The translations under genes and the position numbers were made by a program. A stretch of 45,535 nt of DNA. Origin: a virus (taxonomy: Duplodnaviria > Heunggongvirae > Uroviricota > Caudoviricetes). Below the pieces are notes generated by a model, which saw nothing but the letters and a program-made list of their open reading frames with translations, searched no databases and was not told where the DNA came from. Positions 20,269 through 39,374 of the stretch are shown in pieces. Each line of letters begins with the position of its first letter. Position 1 is the stretch's first letter. The stretch lies in the IMG/VR virus record IMGVR_UViG_3300029305_011610, positions 77,395 to 122,929 of that record; one strand, 5' to 3'.

Positions 20269-23200
20269 CAATGTACCTCAGAGCCGCTAAGACAGAGGCA
20301 ATTGAGGCTGGAGAGTCGGTCGAAGGTATGGCTGATAGCACTTCCGAGCTTAGAGAAGAAATTTTGGCTTTAACCGGTAATCGTGTTGATCTGATGGCCG
20401 ATGATAAAAATTTTAAAAGTACATATCAAATTTTAAAAGAACTCTCAGAAGTTTGGGATAGCTTAACTGACGTATCTCAAGCGAACATTCTGGAAATGAT
20501 AGGAGGCAAACGCAACGCAAATATTGTATCTGCCTTGCTCGAGAACTTTTCTCTTGCAGAAGAAGTCCTCAAAACTTCGATGAGTTCCTCTGGTTCTGCA
20601 ATAGCAGAAAACGAAAAATACCTTGAGTCAATTCAAGGTCATATATCTCAGTTCAAAGCGGCATTTCAGGCTCTGTCAGAGACTGCAATCAATAGTGATT
20701 TAGTCAAAGATATTATTGATATCGGAACCGCTTTTTTAGAGGCTGCAAACTCAGTGGTTAAATTTGTGGATGAAACAGTAGGTTTAGAAACCGCAATAAA
20801 GTCAATTCTGGGTTTAAAGGCGGCAAATCTATTAGGTGGATTATTTGATAAGACTCTAATTTTATCTGACAAGCAGCAAGAAAAATTCAGCAAGTTTGGT
20901 GAAGCAGTTCAAGGCGGTATAAATGGAATCTATAGTATTTTTGTCGAAGCAACAGATAACGGCGTAAATTTCTTCGATGTACTGATTTCCAAAGTTGGCA
21001 AGACGAAAATGGCACTCTTAGGCCTCGTCGCCGTTGCCGCAACGGTTTCTGCTCTATTTGGTGCTTATCTAAAACTTGAAGAGCAACTTGATACTAACTT
21101 CCATAGCGATCATGGAAAGTTTGAAGATGAGTCTAAATCTATAAAGAAATATAAATCAGAAATTTCTGACTTAAAGAAAACACTTGAGGATAATAGCTCT
21201 TCGACAGAAGATCGTGCGGACGCAGAAGAACGCTTGCTAGAAATACAAGACGATCTGATCTCCACATATGGAGAAGACGCAAAAGGATTAAACCTCTTAA
21301 AGTTAAGCTCTGATGAAGCCGCCGAGGCGCTTGATAATTTAATAAAAAAACGTGCCGAGTTTTATTTATCCGAAAACAAATATGTAGCGAAAAAATATGA
21401 AAGAGGCATTGAAGGACAAAGGACTTTTTCCGCAAGCGCATATTCGTTTGGTATAGATAAAGATTTCGTAAGTGAAATGCAAAGCATTGCAGAAGCTCAC
21501 GGGATATCTTTCTCAAAGAATCTTGGCGGAGAAATTGAGTTCTCATTTAAAGGAGATCCAGCGGAAGCCGCAGAAAAATTAAAAGCATTCCGTAAAGAGG
21601 TTCATGAGCTAGAAAACGAGTGGTTTCTAGACGATAAAGACGCAAACGCAGACGTATTGTTAAAAAGCATAGATGGAGCTGTAGCTCAAGCCGAAAGATA
21701 TACAACAGAATTTGGAGATGGGTATAAGGAGCTCAAAGATTTCTGGGCGGCGATCACAGGCGACGACGGGGCTTCTGGAGATCAAGAAAGCTCCCTCATA
21801 GAGGCTTCTAGAACTTTTGACAGCTACGTTGACTCTCTGTCAGCGTTTAAGACAGAGCAATCAGCTCTTACAAATGCATTAAAGGAGCAGGGCGGCGCAG
21901 GAACTCTTACGCTGGAAACTTATAAAGCTTTAGTTGCTGAAACCGAAGATTATGCTACTTGTCTTGAGTACGAGAACGGTGTAATGCGTATAAATGCTGA
22001 TGCAGCAAATGCTATGCTAGAAGCTAAAATGCTGACCGAGGCGTTAGATATAGAAGGGCAAATCATAAAGGAATCAGCACAGTATGAAGCGAACGCAAAA
22101 GAGATAGCAAAACTTAATGCTAGATATAAATCTTTGTCGGATGATGAAAAGAGTCAGTTAGAAACTCTTAAGAATAGCCAAGTAGAAATACAAAAGACTA
22201 TTCAACAATATAGCTTGCTACGCGCTGAGTTACTAAACATGAATAGCGCATATTCTAAATGGAAAGCCGCTCAAGACGCACCAGAGACTGGTGATATGTA
22301 CGACGAAATGAAGACCGCTGCGAGTCAAATTAATGATGCTTTAAAAACTGGTAAAACCGGTACTCTAAAATATCAGACTGCTGTCAAAATGCTTGTCACT
22401 TTGGAAGACCCTAGCCCTAAGCAAGTTCAGGATTACATGAAGAAGCTGAATCGCTATATTACTGACGATAGTTCTGGTGCAAAAAACTTTATAAATGACA
22501 TGATAAACAAGGGTCTCATGGAGTCCTCTACAGGCGGACGAGCCACATGGAATGACGCGTGGCTTAAGGACGCAAGCATGACGATAGATGAGATTTGTAA
22601 TATCATGGAAATCACACCAACTATGGCAAAGGCTATTTTCGGTGAACTCGAAGAATATCACTTTGACTTTAGTTGGGATGAAGACGATTTTAATAATGTA
22701 ATTCTTGAAGAACAGCTACGAAAAATTCAAGAAGAAGTTGAAAGATATAAGAAAGCTATTGCAGATAATCCTAAGATTGCGCCAGAAATAGATTCCACTA
22801 CATTAGATGATTATGTTGCAAGAGTAACGGAGGCAACTAATAAACTCAAAAAGCTAAATGATAAAGGTGCAAGCAGCTATGACATCACTCCTATTAAAGA
22901 AGAGATTGAAGCTTTATTAAGCGAAGGGCTTGAGCTCGGAATAGATCTGGAAAGCATTGGCTTCACAGAAGAGTTCCTATCAGGCCTTGGGTTAGATATT
23001 CAAACAGCAGACGTTCAAGCTCAACTAACAGCTGTCGCTGGGGATTTGGACAATATTGCCGCTAAAATCACAGCAGTTGCTGCAATGGCAATCGGTGATC
23101 TTGGTGCTGCCGCAGCAAGTAATATGCTATATGTTGTTTATAGTAGACTTCAGGACATTCAAAATTTCTCTATAGACGACAAGACATTTAATGTAACAGC

Positions 23201-25229
23201 TTTAGTAAATAATGGTTCTGGCAGCTCATCAAGCGATGGAGGTTCTTCTAATTCAGCTTCTGCGAGAGGTACACTTAATGCTCGTGGCGGTAGAACCTTG
23301 GTCGGAGAGCTTGGCAGAGAAATAGTGGTAAGCGGGAATCGATACTATACTGTTGGCGATAAAGGTGCTGAGTTTGTCAACCTTAAAAAGGGAGACATTG
23401 TGTTTAACCATATCGACACTGAACGCATCCTTGGTATGTCAAGCAAAACTCATCAAGGGCAAGCTTTTGCTGGAGGCACATTTGGCAAAGGTTCAATAGC
23501 TGACCAATTAGATGCTGCAAAAGAATATGCAGAAGCCCACGGTTTACCGACTATTGTCAACATTGAAGTAAAGCCTGCTGGTGATAATAATTCTGCTGCC
23601 GCAATACAGAATTCGTCTAAAGATGAAGACCAAGCGTATAAGCGAGAGTCTGGTTATGGCTCTCTAGGCGTCATACCGCCTCCTCTCCCTACTCCTCATA
23701 ATCAAAAATCAGAAGGAGGCGCAACGGATTTAACCGGAAATGGTGCCGGCGCTCCAGGGTCTGAACAAGCAAAGAAAAACTTCGAAGAAGCATATAAAGA
23801 GCATCAACACTTCCTATCGATGGATCAAGAAGAAACAGCAGAGTATCTCGACTGGTTAGAGAGTGCTTACAAAGATGCCTTCGAAGAAGGTTCCGAAGAG
23901 TACTGGAAATATGAAGAAGAAGTCTACAAAGGCCGTCAAGACCTATTTAAAGATATGCTTGGAGACAAAGAACATTTCATTTCCATGCTTGTTGCTGATG
24001 AAAAAGATGCATCTACTATTATAAACAATTACCAGTTGATTATAGAGGCCGTAGAAGCGGAATTGGAAAAAGCTTATGAGTCAGGTCTTGATGACAACGA
24101 CGACTACGTTCAAGAACTAAAAGACAAGCTTGTTGACTACAAAGATGAAATCAAATCTATAAACGATGAGATTACAGAGGATGCAAAAGAATCCTACGAA
24201 GATCTGATTGAGTATCGTATGGATATGCTCAAGCAAGAACTTGAGGATGAGAAAGAAAAACTCAATGAGCGTGTCAACACACTGCAAGATTTCTATAGTA
24301 AGCAAAAAGACATGTTAAAAGATGTCTACGATGAAGAAAAGTATCTTGAAGACCAAACAGAGAAGCAGAAAGCTGTTTCTGATATCAGGGCAGAGCTTGC
24401 AATGCTTGAAAACGATGATTCTGTTAGCGCACAACGCCGCAAGCTTGAATTGCAAGAAGAGCTGAAAGAAGCAGAAAAGGAACTTGCCGATTTCGAAAAA
24501 GAGCATGCTCTCGAGATGACACAAGACATGTTAGATAAGCAGCTTGAAATGCAAGAGAACAATCTAAACGCAGAGATTGATAACATTGACGAGCAACTTG
24601 AAAACGAAAAAGCTATACGAGATCAAGCAATTAAAGATCTGCAAAATGGGGATTTGGCGCTATTTAACGCCATGCTTGAGTATAACGCGTTCCATGGCGA
24701 CGGTAACGATCAAACAGTAGTTGATCTTTGGACAGATGCTTATGAGGCATTGAGTAAGTATTACGCACTTTACAATAAGCTGTATGAAGGCATGTACTTG
24801 GAAAACGTTACCGATGCAAAAGGTTTACTACCTGTTCCGGTTGGTATCGGATATGCAAGCGGCACATACAGCGCGACACCAGGTATTCATGAAATTGAGG
24901 AGATGGGCGCTGAGTATATCTTCGAATCTTCTAACGGTAGAAAATATCGTATGTTTAGAGGCGATGAGAAGGTACTTAATGCTACTGCGACAGACTTCTT
25001 ATATAAGTTTGCTAATAGCGGTGGTAAAATTCTGGAGGGCATGGTTTCTGGAGCAAGATCTCCGATCCCGTCTAATGTAGTCTCAAACAATCATATTTTT
25101 GAAATCAAAACAGGTGACATTATCGTTCAAGGTAATGCAAGTGAACGAACTGTCTCTGAAATTCGCAGAGCGCAAAGAGAAAGCGTAGACTTCATGCTAA
25201 AAGAGTTTGGACGTCTACAAAGCAGATAA
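20269..25229 (+). CDS. Tape measure exon 3; spliced CDS 6216 nt = 2071 aa
   Basis: MYLRAAKTEA...STYQILKELSEVW...GGKRNAN, long coiled coils, C-terminal GYASGT...PG...E.G.E motif. Exon sum 1236+19+4961 = 6216, in frame. Confidence 0.9.
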
Positions 25230-28656: not shown

Positions 28657-30291
28657 ATGGTAATTAAGAAAAATGGCAATGTGCTTCTAACATTTGATAT
28701 CACAGATGAGATAAAGGCTTATGCGAGTTTTTGGTGGACAGCCTCTTATCTTGACACTGGCGACACATCAAATATTTCTATAGATAAAATTTACTTTAAT
28801 CACTACGGAAAATCTGGCAATTATTTGATAGATGCAGATATGTATGTTGATGATTTTTTGTTTGGATCATTTAAAAATGGCACAGCAGTCATTAGTACGC
28901 CAAAGGAAAAGACCGAGGTTATCACAGATACATTTCCAGCTACACCGTTCAACTCTCATGCAATAGAACACAATGGAATCGATAACAAGACTGTTGTTTT
29001 AAAAATAGACTGTGTGATGCATGATATAAGCGAGTCAATTGATATATCTTCTACTTATTCCATGGAGATCAATATGTCTGATTATTCACAAATTGCATTT
29101 GTGGACCCAGTTCAGCTTTATATCGATCAGACTTATTCTCTCGTTTTGAACCAATACTCCCCTAAATATGATTATGTTATCCAGTACGATTTTGGTGAAT
29201 TGAGCGGGTACATAAATTCTCGTGGCTATAGCTCTAATATAGAAGAAAAGCTATCCGGCCAAACACATACATTTAGAGTACCTACATCATTTTATAGTCA
29301 AATACCAAATTACAAGAATGGCATCGTTACCATAATCGTCTACACATATTCTGGAGAAACGCTGTTGGGTTTTTCTGGAGTACCCCTCATTGTTAGTGTG
29401 TGGCCAGCGATTTGCGCACCCTCGTTTTCCGCAACAGTTGTGGACACAAACGAAAGCACGCTCGCTGTTACCGGAGATTCAAGTAAATTTATTAAATTCT
29501 GCTCTTCTGCCCATGTATATGTGGATGCGACTTCGAAGTACGATTCGACAATATCATCAATCACGGTTAACGGAATCGTAGCCCAGAACGGGATTGTAGA
29601 TATCGCTAAAGTTAATTCCAACGTTATTCAAGTTTCTGTAGTAGATTCGCGTGGTGTTTCTACATCTGAAGATATTTATATAGATATGATACCATATGTC
29701 ATGCTCACCACCGACCTGTCTGCCAAACGAGACGATCCTACGTCTGGTAACGTTACACTGACAATAAAGGGTAACTTTAACAGCGGGAAATTCGTTGATG
29801 GACAAGACGGATCTGCAGAGAATGAACTAGTCCTTACATTCTCTGTTATTGACGAAGATGGAATTGCGACTCAGCCAGAGAGCTTATCTTGTTCCGTGAC
29901 AGATGACACGTATGTTTCGATGGCGAAAATTAACGGCCTTGATTATGAACATACTTACATTATAGAGGTAGTCGCAAAGGATAAGATAAATACTGTAATC
30001 GCACGAGCAACTATAAAACCTGGTGTTCCTGTATTTGAATGGGGTAAAAATGATTTTACAGTAAACAAAAGATTAAACGCAAAAGGCACGTTAGAAATAA
30101 GCTCCTTGAATTCTTTTATTGTCGGCGAGACCCCATTTAATACCCTTCTTTTAGACTTAGTCTACCCAGTTGGCTCAATGTATATGGCGGATGCAGAAGT
30201 AGTGCCTAGCGATTCTATCGGTGGAACATGGGTATTAGTTATGGAGGACACGGATAATACAGGAGCATATGTTTGGAGACGTACTGGGTAA
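28657..30291 (+). CDS. Minor tail/baseplate protein
   Basis: 544 aa, beta-rich, with C-terminal PVFEWGK and LDLVYPVGSMYM...GGTW motifs common in phage tail proteins. Confidence 0.65.
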   Translation: MVIKKNGNVLLTFDITDEIKAYASFWWTASYLDTGDTSNISIDKIYFNHYGKSGNYLIDADMYVDDFLFGSFKNGTAVISTPKEKTEVITDTFPATPFNSHAIEHNGIDNKTVVLKIDCVMHDISESIDISSTYSMEINMSDYSQIAFVDPVQLYIDQTYSLVLNQYSPKYDYVIQYDFGELSGYINSRGYSSNIEEKLSGQTHTFRVPTSFYSQIPNYKNGIVTIIVYTYSGETLLGFSGVPLIVSVWPAICAPSFSATVVDTNESTLAVTGDSSKFIKFCSSAHVYVDATSKYDSTISSITVNGIVAQNGIVDIAKVNSNVIQVSVVDSRGVSTSEDIYIDMIPYVMLTTDLSAKRDDPTSGNVTLTIKGNFNSGKFVDGQDGSAENELVLTFSVIDEDGIATQPESLSCSVTDDTYVSMAKINGLDYEHTYIIEVVAKDKINTVIARATIKPGVPVFEWGKNDFTVNKRLNAKGTLEISSLNSFIVGETPFNTLLLDLVYPVGSMYMADAEVVPSDSIGGTWVLVMEDTDNTGAYVWRRTG

Positions 30292-30302
30292 GGTGGTGAA
30301 TA

Positions 30303-31001
30303 ATGAGTATTTTTTGTAAAGATATAAACGGAAATGAATTAGAAAAATTATATCAATGGGATATGGGGCAACAAATCATCTTATTAGGGGTTGAATCATA
30401 CGGCGAAACTTATTTCCACTTTTCAAACGAGCAATGTGGAGATGTGTACGTTGGAAATTACATAGCAGATAATGATGAATATTTAGTTGAAGTTCCAAAC
30501 ATTTTATTGCAAGAAGATAAGCCTATTCGTCTTTATATTTATAACCAGACAAGCGACTCTGTCGCATTCACTACGCAAATGATTTGCATTCCTGTAGTAC
30601 CAAGACCAAAACCATTCGGATATATATATGAAAATAATGCTGATTATGTACGATATGAGGATTTAAACGCAGATGTGCGAGAGCTCCGAGAAATGATCGA
30701 GTCTATTACTAACGGTAGCAACGGAGCTGTTATATATTCTGATTCTCAATATCTTGATTCAACTGCTAAGAGTACTGCAAAAAATAATATCGGTATTTTT
30801 GTATCTGATAATGAGCCAGAAAATGCGTCAGATGGTGATCTATGGGTCAATACAAGCGAAAATGTTGCCACTGTATCAAACGTCCATTTGGTAGATGTTG
30901 GTAGTGGCGATTTATCTTCAATAGACTTCAGCAAATTTAATGTCGGAGATATTATACTTGTAACCATGTCGGAATTAAAAAATAATGTTGTTGTAATTTA
31001 A
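30303..31001 (+). CDS. BppU-like baseplate/fibre adaptor protein
   Basis: LYQWDMGQ.I...F.N...VPNILLQ...I.V..RPKP..YIY pattern and a SDNEPENASDGDLW linker. Confidence 0.55.
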   Translation: MSIFCKDINGNELEKLYQWDMGQQIILLGVESYGETYFHFSNEQCGDVYVGNYIADNDEYLVEVPNILLQEDKPIRLYIYNQTSDSVAFTTQMICIPVVPRPKPFGYIYENNADYVRYEDLNADVRELREMIESITNGSNGAVIYSDSQYLDSTAKSTAKNNIGIFVSDNEPENASDGDLWVNTSENVATVSNVHLVDVGSGDLSSIDFSKFNVGDIILVTMSELKNNVVVI

Positions 31002-31012
31002 GGAGTGACTTT

Positions 31013-32383
31013 ATGTTCTCAAGTACTGACGGAAAAACTATCCTTTATGGCTTTACAAATCAAACAATGCCAGTATATAAGCGGAGTGATGACGAGTTAG
31101 TTAGTGGAGCTTTTTATATTGCAGATGGTAATGGCAGTGCTCTGGGGGTCATGGCAGTTGTCATAACCGACGATGTTGTTGCCTATTTTAACACCACTGA
31201 AGAACTATCGTCACTTTGTACGTATGATTTTTGCGGTACGACAGCCCCGCCAAATACGACCGTCTATATTTCCAAAGGATTTGAAGCAGGTAGTATTGAT
31301 GCGCTGCTTTCCAATATTGTGGCGCAAGGCAAATCAGGTGATAATGGGGAATTTATAATCTCAAGCGTGCCTGGCTTTGATGACATAGCGTCTATATGGA
31401 TTCGCGTACCAGCTGAATATGCTCAGACCGGCAGTATTGTATGTTCTGTAGAGGCAAATTTAATTGACGTAGAACAAAATAACAACATCTTAGCCTATCA
31501 ATATATCGAAACGCAACAAGGGCCGATGACGTGCCCGACCTGCGGTGGTGCCGGGGCTATTGGTGAGGCTCAGTGCACAGTCTGTAAAGGAAGTAAATCA
31601 ATTCGAGATCCGCGCTACACGATTTCAGGCAGATGCAGCAAAGACATAATGTCTGTATATGTTAGTTCAATAGACAGTCAAAGCTTACTATCATATACAA
31701 ACGAAACGGTTAATACACTTTCATCCAATTTATTCGGCTCATGTGAATCAAGTAACGGAGAGTACGAGTTAAGTTTTATGCCCAAAGGCGGTGAGCTGTT
31801 TATTGTATGGGGCGTATCTGAAAGCAGCAATTATCTAACGATTGATAGATCCAGTATATCAGAGGGTTATGTAGAATGCTTATCTGCAGATACTTTAATT
31901 ACTATGGCAGATGGCAGTAAACGTCGCATTGATAAGCTACATATTGGAGATTTTGTTATGGATAAAGATGGTTGCCCAACTCCGGTGTATTCCATTTCAC
32001 GTGGTCGTTTTAGTCCATACTATACTATCTATACGTTCGAGGATGGTACGACCGTAAACGTGGTAAAAAGACATCGTTTTTTTAATGCAGATCAAGGCTT
32101 TTATCAATATATCGATAAATGGGGAGTTGGTGAACATGCTGTAAAGCAAAACGGCGAAAAAGTTGCTCTCGTATCAGAGGAACGCGTATACAAGGAAACA
32201 GAAAGGTTCGGCCTTTGGACAAAAAATGGCAGTTATTTTGCAAATGAAATCTTGTCTGGTATGGCATTTTGCAACAAAAAACTACTTGAAAATGCAACAG
32301 CCGAGCAAGCTGTTAATATGATGATGTCTATTGCAGAAAGTCAATTATTGCAGTTAATAGGGATAAAGGGGGTTTTGCCGTGA
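31013..32383 (+). CDS. Beta-rich protein with a DnaJ-like Zn finger and a C-terminal Hint (Hedgehog/intein) domain
   Basis: Block A CLSADTLITMADGSKRRIDKLHIGDFV at 31877, block B VVKRHRFF, block G-like SYFANEILSG without His-Asn, then a 40-aa tail. CPTCGGAGAIGEAQCTVCKG at 31532-31594. Confidence 0.8.
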   Translation: MFSSTDGKTILYGFTNQTMPVYKRSDDELVSGAFYIADGNGSALGVMAVVITDDVVAYFNTTEELSSLCTYDFCGTTAPPNTTVYISKGFEAGSIDALLSNIVAQGKSGDNGEFIISSVPGFDDIASIWIRVPAEYAQTGSIVCSVEANLIDVEQNNNILAYQYIETQQGPMTCPTCGGAGAIGEAQCTVCKGSKSIRDPRYTISGRCSKDIMSVYVSSIDSQSLLSYTNETVNTLSSNLFGSCESSNGEYELSFMPKGGELFIVWGVSESSNYLTIDRSSISEGYVECLSADTLITMADGSKRRIDKLHIGDFVMDKDGCPTPVYSISRGRFSPYYTIYTFEDGTTVNVVKRHRFFNADQGFYQYIDKWGVGEHAVKQNGEKVALVSEERVYKETERFGLWTKNGSYFANEILSGMAFCNKKLLENATAEQAVNMMMSIAESQLLQLIGIKGVLP

Positions 32384-33531
32384 AAAAATTAGTTCTTATA
32401 GCCGAAGAGAGTATTTTTTCAGGAGTTGTTAAATGCGGCATGGCAGAACTGGTTGACAGTTTAGCCAACTCTCTTGGTCAAAATTATGAGGTTACAGTAG
32501 TTTGTCCAGATGGCGATGGTGTGCTTGCGAAAACTGTTAGCGATATTAGAACAATTGAATACGGGGTTAAGTCGTGCAGGTTTTCTTGCGTTGACTATTA
32601 TATGATTAAGCCTAATATGTGGCCAGATAAAGCAATTGACGTCGTTAACAGGCTTAAGCCAGATATTTTTCATAACATGTCAGAGCCATGGTTAATAAAT
32701 ATGCTGAGCTCACGCCCACCAAAGGCTATCTATACTTTTGACTACGCTGAATTTGTAGATGGCAAAGAAGATTCGCTTGCTTATTATGATGCTATCACAG
32801 TTAATTCGAAAAGCTATGCAGGAAATATGATGAAAATGCGTAGCTCTTTAAGCTCTGCGCTGTCGTCAATGAATTTTAAAGGAATAACAAGCGGTATTCT
32901 TAATACTGTATTTGACCCTAAAAAAGGGCTTTTGCTTCCAATGAAGTACAGCCCTGATGATCAAAGCGGCAAACAAATATGTAAGCAACGACTTTTACAA
33001 ACGTATGGTATCTCCGGAAACCCATATATTTGTTTGTTAATGTGCAGACTAGTAGAGGAAAAAGGCATAGACGACGTTCTTAATGTAGTGGAAGATATCA
33101 AGAACAGTGGTGGTGTATTGTTGGTTGTCGGCAAGGGTGATGCAAAGTATGAAAAACGCTTTAAGGAATTCAAACGTTCCGATGGAGTAGTATATTTAGA
33201 TAAGTGGGCGTCACACCTACAGATTGCACCGCTTACATCTGGGGCAGACTTTTTCTTACAGCCAAGTATTTATGAGGCTTGTGGTTTAATGCCAATGACG
33301 GCAAGTTGTTATGGAGCAATCCCAATTGTTACTTTGAATGGTGGCTTAGCAGATAATTTTAATGAAGAGAACGCCATTATTGTCGATAATGGGTTGACAG
33401 AAGCTATTCATAAAGCAGCTTCGTTGTATATGGACAGTGATGCTTTAATACAAAAACGTAAGATTTGTATGGAGCAAGATTTTTCTTGGAATACAAGAAA
33501 GGCAGAATATATCGAACTATATGAAGAATAA
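32380..33531 (+). CDS. GT-B glycosyltransferase, glycogen synthase (GlgA)-like
   Basis: N-terminal KLVLIAEE...KCGMAELVDSL (cf. KTGGLADV) and C-terminal GADFFLQPSIYEACGL..M.A..YGAIPIV...GGLAD (cf. FEPCGL). At 383 aa it is shorter than typical GlgA. Confidence 0.85.
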   Translation: MKKLVLIAEESIFSGVVKCGMAELVDSLANSLGQNYEVTVVCPDGDGVLAKTVSDIRTIEYGVKSCRFSCVDYYMIKPNMWPDKAIDVVNRLKPDIFHNMSEPWLINMLSSRPPKAIYTFDYAEFVDGKEDSLAYYDAITVNSKSYAGNMMKMRSSLSSALSSMNFKGITSGILNTVFDPKKGLLLPMKYSPDDQSGKQICKQRLLQTYGISGNPYICLLMCRLVEEKGIDDVLNVVEDIKNSGGVLLVVGKGDAKYEKRFKEFKRSDGVVYLDKWASHLQIAPLTSGADFFLQPSIYEACGLMPMTASCYGAIPIVTLNGGLADNFNEENAIIVDNGLTEAIHKAASLYMDSDALIQKRKICMEQDFSWNTRKAEYIELYEE

Positions 33532-34192
33532 AGAAGTCGGAAGATTAAGGCATTTAGCCATCATCGCAGATGGGAATCGGCGTTGGGCAAACGCTAACGG
33601 GCTCCCTATTAACATGGGATATATTCAAGGTTTAACTGTGATTGAAAACTGTTGCCATTGGGCAATTCAGAACGATATCCCTTATCTTACAGTATATTGT
33701 TTTTCCACTGAAAATTGGAAGCGTCCTAAAAATGAGGTCAGTTTACTAATGGATTTGGCTCGTTGGTACTTTGAAGATAGGCGTGAATGGTATATTACAG
33801 CCGGCATCAAAGTTCGATTCTTAGGACGGAGAGATAGATTTGATAAAGATTTTATAGATAAACTTGAAAAAATGGAAAAAGCGACAAACGAAGGTACGAA
33901 AGTGACACTGACTATTTGTGTGGACTACGGCGGCAGAGACGAGATTGCGAGGGCTGTCGCTTCCGGAGCTAAGACAGAAGATGATATCTCCGCTATTCTA
34001 TCGGGTGAAGTGCCAGACCCAGATATTATATTGCGCACTGGAGGAGAGCAAAGGTTATCCAATTTCTTATTATGGCAATCTGCATATGCCGAACTGTTTT
34101 TTTCGTCCGTTTTATTTCCTGCCTTAGAATATAAGGACTTAGATGCATTACTGTGTGAGTATGCATGTAGAAAACGCAATTATGGTTGTTAG
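33521..34192 (+). CDS. uppS: cis-Prenyltransferase (undecaprenyl diphosphate synthase family)
   Basis: HLAIIADGNRRWA, YCFSTENWKRP, DYGGRDEI and DPDIILRTGGEQRLSNFLLWQSAYAELFF; all hallmark motifs are present. Confidence 0.92.
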   Translation: MKNKEVGRLRHLAIIADGNRRWANANGLPINMGYIQGLTVIENCCHWAIQNDIPYLTVYCFSTENWKRPKNEVSLLMDLARWYFEDRREWYITAGIKVRFLGRRDRFDKDFIDKLEKMEKATNEGTKVTLTICVDYGGRDEIARAVASGAKTEDDISAILSGEVPDPDIILRTGGEQRLSNFLLWQSAYAELFFSSVLFPALEYKDLDALLCEYACRKRNYGC

Positions 34193-34251
34193 TCGTAAGC
34201 CTATAAATGTTTACCATTCATAATGAATGAAAGTTGTAAAGGGGTGATAAA

Positions 34252-34890
34252 GTGTCAGTGTTAAAAACAAAAAAGAATGGCGTATGGATAGACGCTGTAA
34301 GTAGTATATTAGATGCCGATACATTGGATGGCAGGCATGCGAATGAGTTTGCGTCCATAAGTAGTGTTGAGAATTTAAATGAAAAACTGCTAAATATTGA
34401 CTCTGAAACAAAAAAAATAGCACAGGATGTTTCCATTATTAAAAATGGAATGGAAGATATTATTGTAACGATAACAAGAAATGATGACGAAACTTATTCA
34501 GCTGATAAAAGTTTTTCAGAGGTGTACGCAGCAGGATACAAGGTCAGAGCTGTATGGCGCCCCAATGATACAGACAGCTATATTTTTAATATCATTTCTC
34601 GTAACGAGGGTGCTATATATTTCCAGTCTGATGCTTTAGGTCAATCTTCAATTTATTTCCGCATTTATAGCGACGATACAATTGAGATGTTGGAGTTACA
34701 ATATGAGACCGCAAAACCTATTCCTGTAAGCGTTGCATCCACAAAAGACAGAGATAATGTAACTGTGACAACCACTTATGAAGACAGTAGTACAGAAATC
34801 GTCACCATTACTTTAGATAGCAATGAATATCCTATCTCAGTGGTTAAAAATGGCAATCAATGTGTATTAACCTGGGATGGTTTCTCCTAA
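34252..34890 (+). CDS. Tail fibre-related protein
   Basis: DADTLDGRHANEFA motif common in phage fibres, a short coiled coil, then a beta domain; GTG start with AAGGGGTGA. Confidence 0.55.
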   Translation: MSVLKTKKNGVWIDAVSSILDADTLDGRHANEFASISSVENLNEKLLNIDSETKKIAQDVSIIKNGMEDIIVTITRNDDETYSADKSFSEVYAAGYKVRAVWRPNDTDSYIFNIISRNEGAIYFQSDALGQSSIYFRIYSDDTIEMLELQYETAKPIPVSVASTKDRDNVTVTTTYEDSSTEIVTITLDSNEYPISVVKNGNQCVLTWDGFS

Positions 34891-34911
34891 TTATAAGGAA
34901 GAATAGATTAT

Positions 34912-35694
34912 ATGATTAAATACAAATACAATAATGTAGTCCTGCCAGTAATGCCTGACGAGCCTGATTATCCGCACGCCATAATAGTTGATACAGGGCT
35001 AAAAGACGATTTAGATGTAAACAATCCAGTATATGCAATCATATTCTCTAAAATGGAGTTTATAATCATCGACTCAACAATAGCGTATTTTGTGACAGAT
35101 AATGAGTGGAAATGTTACTTTGCATTAACCTCTGGTACAAAGTGGGCTCTTTCAGCAATAACCCCATCTGATCCAACTGCACAAATCGCAGGACTTTGTA
35201 ATACAAGCTCGTATGTTTGGTGTGGATCAGATATCTCCCAACTCCCAGAAGGAAACATTTATTACACCGGCACCGCCCCAGTAGAGATAACTGCAGCCGA
35301 CGAACCTGTTGCACTTTCTTCGTTTAACTCAGAATATACATATACAATTGGCTCCTCCCCTTCTCCTCTTGTAATAATTGCAAGCAATCCGCAACCGGAT
35401 GGAGGGACTGTGAGTTTTGAGTGGCATAAAAGAGTAAATGGGAAAGACGGCGGTGTTGTGAGTACGGAGCAAAATTTTTATCCACCGACAGATGAATTAG
35501 GTGCGACAGAGTACTATTGCCTTGTCTCAAATACTTTGAATGATACAATCACCACAGAGTACACGATCGGCGTTATCGTAACAATTATCGAGGTTAAAAG
35601 TGGACGCGGGCGGCTTATAGGGTGTATCTTGCGACAATGTGGTGTACCTATGGCTGAGCTTGTGGCAGATATGATTATAAATACAAGAGGATAA
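34912..35694 (+). CDS. Hypothetical structural protein with an Ig-like domain
   Basis: GTVSFEWHK...YYCLVSNT Ig-like pattern in the C-terminal half. Confidence 0.55.
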   Translation: MIKYKYNNVVLPVMPDEPDYPHAIIVDTGLKDDLDVNNPVYAIIFSKMEFIIIDSTIAYFVTDNEWKCYFALTSGTKWALSAITPSDPTAQIAGLCNTSSYVWCGSDISQLPEGNIYYTGTAPVEITAADEPVALSSFNSEYTYTIGSSPSPLVIIASNPQPDGGTVSFEWHKRVNGKDGGVVSTEQNFYPPTDELGATEYYCLVSNTLNDTITTEYTIGVIVTIIEVKSGRGRLIGCILRQCGVPMAELVADMIINTRG

Positions 35695-35763
35695 TGACTA
35701 CATCCTTGTTTATAGCCAACAACATAGCGCAAGTCGCTTTCACGGAGGTGTAATACATCAAAA

Positions 35764-36204
35764 ATGTATGTTTTCTTAATCAACGAAGATAATTCTATGA
35801 TTACAACCAAGGAGCAACGTATTGTTCAAAAAAGCAACCTTGTGGATGAACTTTGGTTTCTCACTTCCCCTACTTATAACGGACATCGTATGGAAGAATT
35901 TAATGCTCAGTTAGAGTATACTCTTCCTGCTAGTGGCAGGTATAGAAGTGAAACCCTCGTTCGTTCTGAGAATTATAACAATTATTTAAAATACATTTTA
36001 CCTGTTGACTCAGATTTAACTTCTGAAGCAGGTAATATTGACTTAAAGATTTCTTTTACACAAATGGAGAAGATGGACTCTGGGCGTATTATAAAACGAG
36101 TAAGAAAAATAATTCCGACAACAGTCACTATTATCCCAATTCTCGATTGGGACAATATAGAGTCTGAAGGCGAGCTTGATGCAGTCAATGTAGTGCTAAT
36201 CTAA
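35764..36204 (+). CDS. BppU-N-like baseplate adaptor protein
   Basis: 146 aa, GGAGGTG RBS, LKYILPVDSDLTSEAGNIDLKISF pattern. Confidence 0.5.
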   Translation: MYVFLINEDNSMITTKEQRIVQKSNLVDELWFLTSPTYNGHRMEEFNAQLEYTLPASGRYRSETLVRSENYNNYLKYILPVDSDLTSEAGNIDLKISFTQMEKMDSGRIIKRVRKIIPTTVTIIPILDWDNIESEGELDAVNVVLI

Positions 36205-36224
36205 CCCAAATTGTGAATTAAATA

Positions 36225-36258
36225 AAAAATGGCACCACATTATTGTGGTGCCATTTTT
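36225..36258. terminator. Bidirectional terminator-like hairpin
   Basis: AAAAATGGCACCACA-TTAT-TGTGGTGCCATTTTT. Confidence 0.7.
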
Positions 36259-36272
36259 GAGGAGGTTATTAA

Positions 36273-37979
36273 ATGCTTAATTATAAATCAAGGCATGTCT
36301 TCGGCCCCGAAGCTAATGTTGATGGCGCATTGTTGAGCGGTGACATTGATTTCTTTGATATACTATTTTTAGACGAAGGTAAAATAGGATGGATTACAGA
36401 AACTGGGGAAAAATTTATTATTGAAGATAAGGTTCAAGTACGAGTAGAAGATGAATTGCCGAACGAAGGCGTAGAAAATGTTCTGTTTGTATGCGGTAAG
36501 AGTTTATATGTCTGGGATGGGTCAGAGTACGTACTCATTGTTGATGATTACATGTCACTCGAAGACCGAGTAAGCAAACTCGAAGATGCATCTGGCCAGA
36601 TTGACTCCCATAACACGTCTGATAAAGCTCATGCTGATATCAGAAGCATTGTGTCCGACAACGCAAATGAGATAGCTCAGATAAAAAATGGTGCTGAGCT
36701 TGAAACTTTTGCAGATGTAGAATCAATTTTAATGGAATTAGCATATGGCATTTCAGGCGGTTCAGAATTAGAGACTGAAACTAACTTTATAGTTCCAGCC
36801 ATAAACGAAGTTCATTTTGAGTTAGATGAACTAAAAGAGGCACTTCAGGAGTTAATTATTATCGATTATACCAAACTTGAATTTGATGTTACCGAGCTTG
36901 TATCTTTAGCTCATATTTATGGCGTTTCCTGGGATAGAACAGATACTCCAGTTCTTACAAGAATAGATGAAGCAGCCTCATTCCCCTCCCCTGTCGTCGC
37001 CGTCGATACATCTGTGGGTAGCAGTCCGTTTGATAATTTAATGCCATGGGCAGGAATGGAAAAGATAACAGATGAAAATGGGCAAAGTCTGGTATCTATT
37101 CCTAAGTTCTGGTATAGATGGACCTCTACTGAAGATGCTCTAACTCTGCAAATTGCAGACGCCCCCGTCAATGGATTCCACGTATCTCCAATGCATGCAG
37201 ATCGTGGCGATGGGAAAGGAGAGCGTGATGTGGCTTACATCGGAAGATATCATTGCGCTGTAGAAGGAGCGTTAATGGGTAGTATCACAAATGCGTTACC
37301 ACTAACAGATGTACCAAGAACCGGAGCCCGCTATGGGATTACCAGCGCTGCTGGGGACGGCGGCTATTTCTTACAAGACTTTGCTGCATGGTGGACGATA
37401 CGAATGCTGTTCTTGGTTGAATATGCCACTTGGGATGGACAGGCTGTAATTGGAGAAGGCAATATTAGCGGTAGTATTGTTAAAAACGGAGCCACCGATA
37501 ATATGATCTATCATACAGGCATGGTTACCGTGGCAAATGGAGATGCAGGCAATCAGTATAGATGGATTGAGAATCCATGGTCAAATGTGGGCGAATGGAT
37601 CGATGGTATCACATTTGATGGTGCTGACATTTATATTTTCAATAATCCTGAGCAAATGTCAGATGATGTTACGGCAGAAGGTGCTGTCAAGCTCAGCTAT
37701 CAGAGAAGCACAGATGTTATGGGTTGGATACAAGATTTTGGGATTCCCGATAATGAAGGATTGGAATATGCCCTATATCCCACAAAATTAGCAGAAGTTA
37801 CGGACATGACTCCTAAGTATATTGGTGATGCCTGCATCGGTTCCTCTGGTGGTGTTGTTCTGGTTTCGGGTGGTGTCTATGCCTCTAATCCGTTCTATGG
37901 TCCGTTCATGTGCATCGGTGGCTATGGGGCTTCTGGGTCGTTCCCGGATGTTGGTGCTCGTCTCCAAAAACTCCCCTAA
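36273..37979 (+). CDS. DGR target protein, putative receptor-binding protein with a C-terminal CLec/FGE-like variable domain
   Basis: IYGVSW...LTRID, VSIPKFWY, YIGRYH, RMLFLVEYATWDGQAVIG, WIENPWSNVGEWIDG, ending GARLQKLP*; the VR occupies the last codons. Confidence 0.85.
   Translation: MLNYKSRHVFGPEANVDGALLSGDIDFFDILFLDEGKIGWITETGEKFIIEDKVQVRVEDELPNEGVENVLFVCGKSLYVWDGSEYVLIVDDYMSLEDRVSKLEDASGQIDSHNTSDKAHADIRSIVSDNANEIAQIKNGAELETFADVESILMELAYGISGGSELETETNFIVPAINEVHFELDELKEALQELIIIDYTKLEFDVTELVSLAHIYGVSWDRTDTPVLTRIDEAASFPSPVVAVDTSVGSSPFDNLMPWAGMEKITDENGQSLVSIPKFWYRWTSTEDALTLQIADAPVNGFHVSPMHADRGDGKGERDVAYIGRYHCAVEGALMGSITNALPLTDVPRTGARYGITSAAGDGGYFLQDFAAWWTIRMLFLVEYATWDGQAVIGEGNISGSIVKNGATDNMIYHTGMVTVANGDAGNQYRWIENPWSNVGEWIDGITFDGADIYIFNNPEQMSDDVTAEGAVKLSYQRSTDVMGWIQDFGIPDNEGLEYALYPTKLAEVTDMTPKYIGDACIGSSGGVVLVSGGVYASNPFYGPFMCIGGYGASGSFPDVGARLQKLP
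37830..37965 (+). repeat. DGR variable repeat (VR)
   Basis: 136-nt gapless match to the TR; 15 mismatches, every one opposite a TR adenine. Confidence 0.97.
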
Positions 37980-38196: not shown

Positions 38197-38321
38197 TTAT
38201 ATAAGGCTTAGCCGTCTACTATACACATACTTTCCCGCACCTCTTGGTGAAAATAAGCTGTTAGGACACGGTCTAGTAGGATCCCCGAAAAACCGTGAAG
38301 CGAAATAAGGACGGTATTTTT

Positions 38322-39374
38322 ATGAAAAGAGTAGGAAATTTATGGCCTACATTAGTTAGTGATGAAAATTTAAAGGTAGCCATCTTTGAGGTTAATCGAA
38401 CGCATAGAAAGTACAGAATTGTCGACTGGGTAGAAAGAACTGTTGACGACCGTGTAGTTGAATTGCGAAACATCCTTGAGGAAGGTTTCTCTCCTGCTCC
38501 ATCACGTCACCTTGTTATATATGATAAATCTGCAAATAAAACAAGAAATATCCATAGTCCTCGTCTATGGCCGGATCAGTACATTCATCATGCACTAATT
38601 CAAGTATTAGAACCAATTATGATGCGTGGTATGGATCACTGGTGTTGCGGCTCTATCAAAGGTCGAGGTATTTCTTATGGTGTAAGAGGAATAAAGAAAT
38701 GGATGAAAAATGACAAAAAAGGCACAAAATATTGTGCCGAAATTGATATACATCATTTTTATGAAAGCCTCTCTCCTAATGTTGTCCAGGAAAGAATGGG
38801 GCATTTGATAAAGGACAAAAAGATCTTAGATCTGATTAAGCGCACAACCAGAGATGGCATTCTAATCGGCAGCTACTGTAGTCAGTGGTTTGCCAACACA
38901 GTCCTTCAGCCGTTAGATCATATTATACGACAGGAACTGGGAGTCTCTCATTATGTAAGATATATGGATAATTTTTTGTTGTTTTCTAACAGAAAACGTA
39001 CTCTGCATAAGGCGATAAAAAGAATACAACAGTGGTTGAGCCAACATGGCCTTAGGCTAAAAAGCAATTGGCAGGTTTTTCCTACGTCAAAGCGGCTTCC
39101 TTCCGCACTCGGCTATCGTTACGGTAGAGGGTACGTTCTTCCCAAAAAGAAGAATCTGCTTCGGTTTAGGAGGGCTTGCAGACGGGCTTATAAGCGATTA
39201 GTATCTGGTAAACAAATACATTATCGAATGGCTGCAGGAATACTAAGTCGTATTGGGAGCTTAAAACATTGCAAATGCTTCCGTGCAATAGCGGCACATT
39301 TATCGCAAGTACCGATGTGGTTACTTAAAAATATAGTTCGTCAGAACAGTATAAAGAAGAAGGTGATAATTTGA
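38322..39374 (+). CDS. DGR reverse transcriptase
   Basis: MKRVGNLW, RLWPDQYIHHAL, EIDIHHFYES, GILIGSYCSQWFAN, YVRYMDNF, LGYR; immediately downstream of the TR. ATG 38322 is preferred over GTG 38295. Confidence 0.95.
   Translation: MKRVGNLWPTLVSDENLKVAIFEVNRTHRKYRIVDWVERTVDDRVVELRNILEEGFSPAPSRHLVIYDKSANKTRNIHSPRLWPDQYIHHALIQVLEPIMMRGMDHWCCGSIKGRGISYGVRGIKKWMKNDKKGTKYCAEIDIHHFYESLSPNVVQERMGHLIKDKKILDLIKRTTRDGILIGSYCSQWFANTVLQPLDHIIRQELGVSHYVRYMDNFLLFSNRKRTLHKAIKRIQQWLSQHGLRLKSNWQVFPTSKRLPSALGYRYGRGYVLPKKKNLLRFRRACRRAYKRLVSGKQIHYRMAAGILSRIGSLKHCKCFRAIAAHLSQVPMWLLKNIVRQNSIKKKVII

Follow-up and report, generated by a model that had tools for sequence, protein, structure and literature searches.

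The window analysed here, a stretch of 45,535 nucleotides (positions 77,395 to 122,929 of IMG/VR record IMGVR_UViG_3300029305_011610), is the final 45.5 kb of a 122.9-kb provirus record that, by its gene content, looks like a siphovirus-type genome. On its + strand an open reading frame (ORF) at 31013-32383 encodes a protein of 456 residues (49.8-kDa precursor; stop codon 32381-32383) that ends in a Hint domain followed by a short tail, and this gene is the subject of the present analysis together with the two enzyme genes that accompany it. The window carries, in order, genes for a terminase, a tape measure protein (20271-25229), a Dit protein (DUF6558), an 838-residue protein, a DUF859 tail protein and a 232-residue protein, and then the Hint gene, which is followed on its 3' side by genes for a glycosyltransferase (GT) and a UppS-family enzyme, then by additional ORFs and by genes for a reverse transcriptase and an M15 endolysin. 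The Hint/GT/UppS cassette is thus located between the tail and the lysis genes. The Hint gene and its parts are the following.

31013..32383, + strand: whole gene, encoding a tail-module protein made of variable cargo, Hint domain and tail (hidden Markov model (HMM) scans, alignment).
31013..31876, + strand: N-terminal cargo, residues 1-288, 30.8 kDa, pI 4.1 (secondary structure from AlphaFold2 (AF2)).
31532..31594, + strand: CxxCxGxG-type zinc knuckle pair within the cargo (weak Pfam match to DnaJ_CXXCXGXG, residues 169-195; alignment A1).
31874..31879, + strand: predicted scissile bond between Glu288 and Cys289, the latter being the predicted nucleophile of the N-to-S acyl shift (Cys289 invariant in alignments A1 and A3).
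31877..32260, + strand: Hint domain, residues 289-416, with block A CLSADTLITMADG and the block B His354 at 32072-32074 (Pfam, PDB profile, AF2, VIA-align).
32261..32380, + strand: C-terminal tail, residues 417-456 (AF2, alignment A3).

The Hint domain was recognized from both sequence and predicted structure. Cys289 (31877-31879) is the first residue of CLSADTLITMADG, and His354 stands in a block B that reads VVKRHRFF. The domain scored 34.6 bits (E 2.6e-8) with Pfam PF05203 (Hom_end_hint), above the cut-off of 32.1, and a profile of 18 family members, searched against the PDB, found BIL2, a bacterial intein-like (BIL) domain, at an E value of 3.9e-8 (6y75/6tmm) and next PI-SceI. An AF2 model calculated from the family alignment gave predicted local distance difference test (pLDDT) values of 85-94 across the Hint region, and Hint domain plus tail modelled alone were predicted as one unit (mean pLDDT 92.6, predicted template modelling (TM) score 0.85). 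Comparison by VIA-align again placed BIL2 first (Z 19.7, root-mean-square deviation (rmsd) 1.8 over 129 residues), followed by the gp41-1 and DnaB inteins (Z about 18.5-18.9), the Clostridium thermocellum BIL 2lwy (18.4) and Hedgehog 1at0 (18.0, rmsd 1.9 over 129 residues); more than 40 inteins, BILs and Hedgehog were matched at Z 16-19.7, with every match limited to model residues 1-131. Judged from these models the Hint fold is certain and places the protein in the HINT superfamily, and the fold by itself gives no preference for Hedgehog over inteins or BILs. A first-pass annotation, made from the letters of the window, had proposed a Hint domain with a C-terminal extension at 31877-32383 on account of Cys1, the block B His and the ending ANEILSG; these coordinates correspond exactly to Hint, tail and stop codon, and the structure prediction that it called for, compared with BIL, Hedgehog and intein structures, bears out the fold. 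Its label 'Hedgehog-like' is appropriate for the architecture of the protein but not for sequence and fold, which are nearest to BIL2; the Z scores of inteins, BILs and Hedgehog differ by no more than about 2 units and do not separate them.

The predicted catalytic residues are conserved far beyond the window. Searching 1.84 billion cluster representatives with a profile yielded 4778 matches, the top approximately 125 of which (clusters at 50% identity) span both Hint and tail. These clusters are all metagenomic, and the module forms the extreme C-terminus in each of them, on proteins of 179-1250 residues. Across the aligned family (alignments A1 and A3) Cys1 and the block B His are invariant while surrounding residues differ, and the -1 residue before Cys1 is variable. 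Among the 107 cluster representatives having a C-terminus of tail length, the position of the usual block B Thr is occupied by Thr (65), Val (13), Ile (12) or Ser (7); the Val that the first-pass annotation had noticed in the window copy is a minority state. The Hint domain ends in FANEILSG (Ser415-Gly416), after which 40 residues and the stop codon follow, and its final two residues are Ser-Gly in 98 of the 107 representatives and His-Asn in none. The missing His-Asn consequently represents a family-wide state and not the lineage-specific decay that had been named as a possible refutation of the earlier proposal. The residue following the Hint domain is Met417 rather than a +1 Cys, Ser or Thr, and homologues have Ala, Asp, Glu or Thr at this site. 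The same pattern bears on the idea that the Hint domain is catalytically dead and serves as a structural or binding module in a protein that remains full length. The block B Val of the window copy would be in line with such a loss; however, the invariance of Cys1 and His amid varying neighbours, together with Thr as the majority state at block B, makes it very improbable.

Cys1 and the block B His suffice for an N-to-S acyl shift by the mechanism known from inteins, BIL domains and Hedgehog (PMC4031507, PMC7242414). Since the phage family has neither a terminal Asn nor a +1 nucleophile, a branched intermediate and Asn cyclization are impossible, which excludes splicing as well as Asn-driven C-terminal cleavage and leaves only the N-terminal junction able to react. 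In the predicted reaction Cys289, aided by His354, would attack the carbonyl of Glu288 and convert the peptide bond into a thioester, which would then be resolved by water or by an outside nucleophile. The expected products are residues 1-288 (30.8 kDa), with a free or modified C-terminus, and residues 289-456 (168 residues, 19.0 kDa), comprising Hint and tail, in agreement with the earlier suggestion that a fragment of about 288 residues is released at the only reactive junction. Transfer of a Hint thioester to an outside nucleophile has precedents in Hedgehog, where cholesterol is the acceptor (PMC7242414), and in BIL2, where it is a lysine on other proteins (PMC8616854).

Established classes of the superfamily were considered in turn. 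An intein is incompatible with the lack of a terminal Asn and of a +1 nucleophile, with the conserved 40-residue module that follows, and with the absence of a host protein to be restored. Type A BILs retain a C-terminal His-Asn and have no +1 nucleophile (PMC4031507); the phage domain shares the latter feature and lacks the former. Its block-G-like strand (F/Y-A-N-G-L-L) is retained with only the His-Asn substituted; type B BILs, with which we compared it by their description alone, bear no resemblance to block G of inteins, and their cleavage is uncoupled from splicing (PMC4031507). The Hedgehog Hog family was not recovered by sequence, with PF01079 scoring 17.4 bits against a cut-off of 29.7. 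Assignment to the pre-toxin HINT (PT-HINT) domains was dismissed as well, as PF07591 gave no match at E <= 1, no toxin domain is present and the next gene encodes a GT. By these defining features, read from the sequence, the domain is a predicted non-splicing, C-terminal autoprocessing domain of the HINT superfamily that falls outside inteins, type A BILs, Hog and PT-HINT.

The tail distinguishes this family further. AF2 predicted three short helices (residues 418-425, 430-438 and 442-448), for which no solved structure was matched when the Hint plus tail model was searched with Foldseek and VIA-align, and seven positions are invariant in alignment A3 (Asn421, Leu424, Leu425, Ala428, Glu431, Ala433 and Met436). 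Identity to the window protein amounts to 38-65% in the tail, compared to 45-59% in the Hint domain and 19-33% in the cargo, indicating that selection on the tail is at least as strong as on the catalytic domain. The tail is 35-40 residues long, with a net charge of 0 in the window and down to -7 elsewhere (-2 to -7 in most homologues), a mean hydrophobicity of about 0-0.2 and a hydrophobic moment that reaches at most 0.27 (window) to 0.44. The amphipathic helix envisaged in the first-pass annotation is not supported by these values, given three short helices, a modest moment of 0.27 and acidity in most homologues. Because the tail is acidic and weakly hydrophobic, a small protein-docking element fits better than lipid binding, and a membrane- or sterol-type lipid-binding helix is judged unlikely from its charge and hydrophobicity. 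We also considered Asn421 as a displaced cyclizing Asn that would free a peptide of 35 residues; a helix N-cap is the simpler role for this residue, and we regard the cyclization as hardly credible. A second, unrelated C-terminal extension of about 86 residues was observed on other Hint domains without His-Asn, following ...NG(M/I)L(S/T), at loci L024, L063, L065, L066, L070 and L167 (for example L066:951-1631). It contains the conserved motifs F-N-I-F-E-x-D, E-T-Y-G-L-Y-T-Y-E-E and G-G-A-Y-L-K-I, and its bearers form a separate clade (support 100/98) of large proteins from metagenome-assembled genomes (MAGs) of Clostridia and Bacilli and from one viral contig.

The tail-bearing Hint genes are linked to two enzyme genes, which in the window are as follows.

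32380..33531, + strand: short (383 residues) GlgA-like GT-B glycosyltransferase (HMM and PDB matches).
33521..34192, + strand: cis-prenyltransferase of the UppS family (PF01255, E 7e-67; TIGR00055, 204.9 bits against a cut-off of 109.55).

The GT shows similarity to the nucleotide-sugar half of glycogen and starch synthases (1rzu, E 5.5e-36), while its score against TIGR02095 (152.7 bits) is far under the cut-off of 328; by our own reading of alignment A2 the GlgA motifs K..G, R..KG and E.CGL are kept and the acceptor half is shortened. A simple hydropathy scan found no membrane segment or signal peptide in the cassette proteins of the window. To survey the linkage, 173 loci from IMG/VR, GTDB genomes and metagenomes were scanned with HMMs for Hint, tail, GT, UppS, farnesyl diphosphate (FPP) synthase and DUF1385. 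A GlgA-like GT was present in all tail-bearing Hint loci with sufficient downstream DNA, and in 26 of 26 distinct tail-clade members with a GT in the locus it was positioned directly 3' of the Hint gene or separated from it by a single gene (DUF1385), and in most cases stop and start overlap by 4 nucleotides at the Hint/GT junction. UppS was found in nearly all tail-bearing loci, and FPP synthase or DUF1385 in some. Neither GT nor UppS occurred in any of the tail-less Hint loci (about 45 distinct Hint copies); the nearest tail-less relatives end in ANGLL(A/T/C)G plus 9-15 residues, or exactly at the Hint end. In a maximum-likelihood tree of 42 rows the tail-bearing Hints formed one clade with 100/100 support, which holds all 26 GT-associated rows. 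No fused Hint-tail-GT protein was found in the best 150 representatives of the profile search, the modules of which all end within about 65 residues of the C-terminus.

Searches that started from the enzymes pointed in the same direction. The GT alignment retrieved matches from IMG/VR only in 7 contigs, all of which carry Hint and tail, whereas a scan of IMG/VR with a single GT protein gave no match and one with a single UppS gave only contigs that had already been collected. The phage-type GT was not detected at E <= 1e-60 in a further 400 genomes from the order to which the host belongs, where the hosts carry their own, clearly different GlgA. Apart from Hint plus tail, GT and UppS, almost no sequence of the window was matched in the related loci, the exceptions being the 232-residue gene and an 895-residue protein in L001 and Dit in L004. 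In other tail-clade members the cargo is exchanged for unrelated sequence, and proteins of the L002 type match that of the window only from residue 243-281 or so onward. Since the cargo is swapped while Hint plus tail, GT and UppS stay together, the latter appear to constitute one mobile unit serving different cargos. The cargo of the window protein itself was predicted by AF2 to consist of beta-sandwich domains with a single zinc-ribbon insert, of which the knuckle copy number differs among homologues (alignment A1), and a structure search of the Atlas returned Ig-like and BACON-like neighbours at low TM scores only.

Several variants of the cassette were encountered. In the commonest version from the human gut a 256-residue trans-prenyl diphosphate synthase is encoded between GT and UppS (L002:9660-10427, also L003-L007 and L098-L115); it matches PF00348 (E 1.7e-39), with FPP synthase as its best NCBIfam match (FPP or geranylgeranyl diphosphate (GGPP) type), and its co-occurrence with UppS implies that phages of the L002 type have genes for both of the steps that lead from C5 units to polyprenyl diphosphate. 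In the L055-L058 lineage, prophages of Oscillospiraceae MAGs, a DUF1385 membrane protein with 2-3 hydrophobic segments is inserted between the Hint plus tail gene and the GT (L055:8927-9754, L057:3391-4155, L058:8617-9381). The cassette was further found on contigs with in-frame stop codons, one of them 172 kb long, that probably belong to recoded phages (L008, identical to L120, 8001-8495; L118, 6118-6600); these have divergent tails and keep GT and UppS, and in L008 the UppS gene lies upstream on the opposite strand. Among the tail-less loci, L059 and L060 (8127-8534 and 9800-10207) show a pair of adjacent genes, both of which encode a Hint domain without the tail at their 3' end; their identical contig was binned to both Parabacteroides goldsteinii and Gemmiger formicilis, and at least one of these assignments is doubtful.

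The arrangement in the window is consistent with joint expression. From 29419 to 36225 there is no terminator-like site on the + strand, and the GT start overlaps the Hint-gene stop (GTGA), which suggests that the Hint, GT and UppS genes are transcribed together with the tail genes and coupled to them in translation. The first terminator-like site past the tail/Hint/GT/UppS block is a perfect hairpin with a 15-bp stem and A and T runs at its flanks (AAAAATGGCACCACA...TGTGGTGCCATTTTT) at 36225-36258, a likely bidirectional terminator. Beyond it, the reverse transcriptase gene (38295-39374; RVT_1, E 1.5e-14) lies 3' of a 568-residue ORF (36273-37979) of the same operon region. On the 5' side of the Hint gene one further gene deserves mention.

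30303..31001, + strand: upstream 232-residue gene, with the C-terminal motif D-F/L-S-x-Y/F-x-x-G-D-I/V-I/L-L-V (compared loci).

This motif recurs directly 5' of several tail-clade Hint genes (window, L001, L002, L005, L053 and L055) and was not found 5' of the tail-less Hint genes that were examined, and the Hint proteins have in common an N-terminal pattern of about 25 residues (M-I-x...G-V...Y-K). These may be interacting ends by which the cargo is mounted on the fibre, with the upstream protein as the fibre partner.

Taken together, our analysis suggests, with a probability of roughly 0.6, that the Hint plus tail is a processing module acting at its N-terminal junction only, with the tail as its functional link to GT and UppS. 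The tail, an addition specific to this clade, would pack against the Hint domain and act as an adaptor coupling cargo processing to the two enzymes or to their product, possibly by docking the precursor to one of them (GT or UppS), which would hold the acceptor. The proposal of the first-pass annotation that the tail selects the incoming nucleophile gains indirect support from the linkage of the tail clade to GT and UppS, which tail-less sisters never show, while the comparison with the sterol-recognition region (SRR) of Hedgehog that inspired it does not hold for this tail. Several observations weigh against such a coupled module. The tail is acidic and not lipid-like, and the block B Val of the window copy may slow the acyl shift. 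In addition, cleavage is for every member of the family a prediction from sequence and fold. Moreover, the tail clade arose only once, and the correlation of tail and GT accordingly reflects one gain with unbroken retention and not repeated association, and a module that travels along without direct interaction could also underlie it. The upstream motif and the N-terminal 25 residues or so are likewise common to much of the tail clade.

The single origin of the clade also suits an explanation by plain self-cleavage, in which the thioester is hydrolysed, Hint plus tail is a removable C-terminal cap for assembly or maturation, and GT and UppS are a chemically unconnected accessory module, which might, for instance, modify the envelope or exclude superinfecting phages. 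A Hint domain plus 2-15 residues forms the end of many phage proteins whose genes have neither GT nor UppS in their vicinity, so that in its ground state the architecture works without a partner; the BFVD database lists phage 'Hint domain containing' proteins as well as matches named collagen or FN3; and the position between tail and lysis genes is a usual place for accessory genes. However, hydrolysis alone leaves unexplained why the tail is conserved as well as the catalytic domain, why the GT has never been lost in the clade despite deep divergence, cargo swaps, insertions, recoded phages and an inverted UppS, and why this type of GT is never seen without Hint plus tail. We consider plain self-cleavage somewhat unlikely.

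The identity of the enzymes raises a more specific possibility, namely a ligation in the manner of Hedgehog, in which the hydroxyl of a polyprenol or of a glucosylated polyprenyl compound attacks the Glu288 thioester and the C-terminus of the cargo becomes esterified with a lipid or glycolipid. The acceptor would originate from the linked UppS (with FPP synthase where present) and GlgA-like GT, and the tail would recruit it in its enzyme-bound form. The order of cargo, Hint and short helical extension matches that of Hedgehog, the cassette genes are translationally coupled, and the near-obligate linkage to GT and UppS, at some loci with FPP synthase (PF00348) or the membrane protein DUF1385, points throughout to polyprenyl chemistry; UppS scores above the TIGR00055 cut-off, and the GT retains its GlgA motifs. 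In contrast, the tail has no basic or hydrophobic membrane face, unlike the SRR (PMC7242414), and the cassette proteins of the window have no membrane segment. Furthermore, the UppS product is a diphosphate and not an alcohol, which host enzymes would have to dephosphorylate, and a lipidated virion fibre has no obvious role. No GlgA-type GT-B enzyme is known to use polyprenyl acceptors, which likewise counts against lipid ligation. On this balance a lipid or glycolipid ester appears rather unlikely. Were it to form, a polyprenyl-derived lipid or glycolipid would resolve the Hint thioester of a fibre protein with the acidic tail as adaptor, providing a viral, prokaryote-world counterpart of Hedgehog cholesteroylation and a lipid- or glycolipid-tagged virion protein; we put this forward as a speculation with the odds clearly against it. 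The capture of a Hint thioester by cholesterol has been described as singular to Hedgehog proteins (PMC7242414).

Three fates of Hint thioesters are known, namely splicing, hydrolysis and capture by a chosen nucleophile, the last exemplified by Hedgehog cholesterol and the ciliate BUBL lysine. In the phage family the residues for splicing are permanently lost, a conserved extension has been acquired, and two sugar- and polyprenyl-lipid enzymes have been kept through cargo swaps. If the tail indeed couples the thioester to these enzymes, the module would represent a new route of protein modification in phages of the dominant gut Firmicutes and would offer protein engineering a small, naturally occurring module for ligation at the C-terminus. 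If instead self-cleavage is all that happens, it would still be an undescribed maturation device of phage fibres, and the reason for a phage-borne UppS and a slimmed glycogen-synthase-like enzyme would remain a question. Our literature search found no paper that treats Hint domains at the C-terminus of phage fibre proteins, the combination of Hint, GT and UppS, or the function of DUF1385, and the phage 'Hint domain' mentions that it did find concerned true inteins in terminase and similar genes. A tblastn search with the Hint protein gave zero matches in 50,697 GenBank phage records, and PHROGs has no family for it.

Among characterized systems, BIL2 from the BUBL1 locus of Tetrahymena thermophila (6y75, 6tmm) is the best PDB match of the phage Hint in both sequence and fold. 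The two share Cys1, the block B His (HRFY motif) and the lack of a +1 nucleophile, and the BIL thioester serves cleavage or transfer rather than true splicing (PMC4031507, PMC8616854), as is predicted for the phage domain. BIL2 and type A BILs differ in keeping the His-Asn and in lying between two domains, while the phage Hint ends in Ser-Gly, is located at the protein C-terminus with a conserved 40-residue tail, and belongs to a phage tail module linked to GT and UppS. A further possibility is a protein-protein ligation as in BIL2/BUBL, in which the thioester would be attacked by a lysine from a second virion protein, for instance the putative fibre protein encoded upstream, and the cargo would be cross-linked into the phage tail. 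Such a reaction would accord with BIL2 being the closest solved relative (E 3.9e-8, Z 19.7), with the ability of BIL2 to attach the domain on its N-terminal side to lysine residues in other proteins (PMC8616854), and with the gene carrying a conserved C-terminal motif that lies 5' of the Hint gene in much of the clade. However, the terminal Asn kept in BIL2 is absent from the phage family, and GT and UppS would have no role, which renders this ligation improbable.

The Hog domain of Hedgehog (1at0) resembles the phage protein in the succession of cargo, Hint, short helical extension and protein end, and in having no terminal Asn and the N-terminal junction alone reactive. In Hedgehog the extension recruits the nucleophile (PMC7242414). 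At the junction the phage Glu-Cys-Leu, with its variable -1 residue, contrasts with Gly-Cys-Phe of Hedgehog, and the phage tail of 35-40 residues is acidic and weakly hydrophobic, whereas the SRR comprises 50-100 residues that form a hydrophobic helix-loop-helix, yields insoluble peptides and binds membranes via leucines and basic residues (PMC7242414). The hosts of this phage are Gram-positive gut bacteria, which are not known to make sterols.

PT-HINT domains (PF07591) are releasing peptidases near the C-terminus of long filamentous proteins, some of which have tail-fibre repeats (PMC3482391). They resemble the phage domain as bacterial or phage Hints near a C-terminus, and the tail-less relative L059 matches PF07591 at 31.5 bits; the difference is that PT-HINT releases a toxin domain that follows it, whereas 40 conserved helical residues and no immunity gene accompany the phage Hint. 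The Peptidase S74 domains of phage tailspikes and fibres are self-cleaving C-terminal intramolecular chaperones with a Ser-Lys dyad. If plain cleavage holds, the phage Hint would play a similar role, being a module at the C-terminus of a fibre protein that cuts itself off once assembly is complete, although fold and chemistry are unrelated (Ser-Lys dyad versus Hint Cys thioester) and no sequence or fold match was seen. Overall, sequence comparison places the phage Hint closest to the BIL domains, and its architecture places it closest to Hedgehog.

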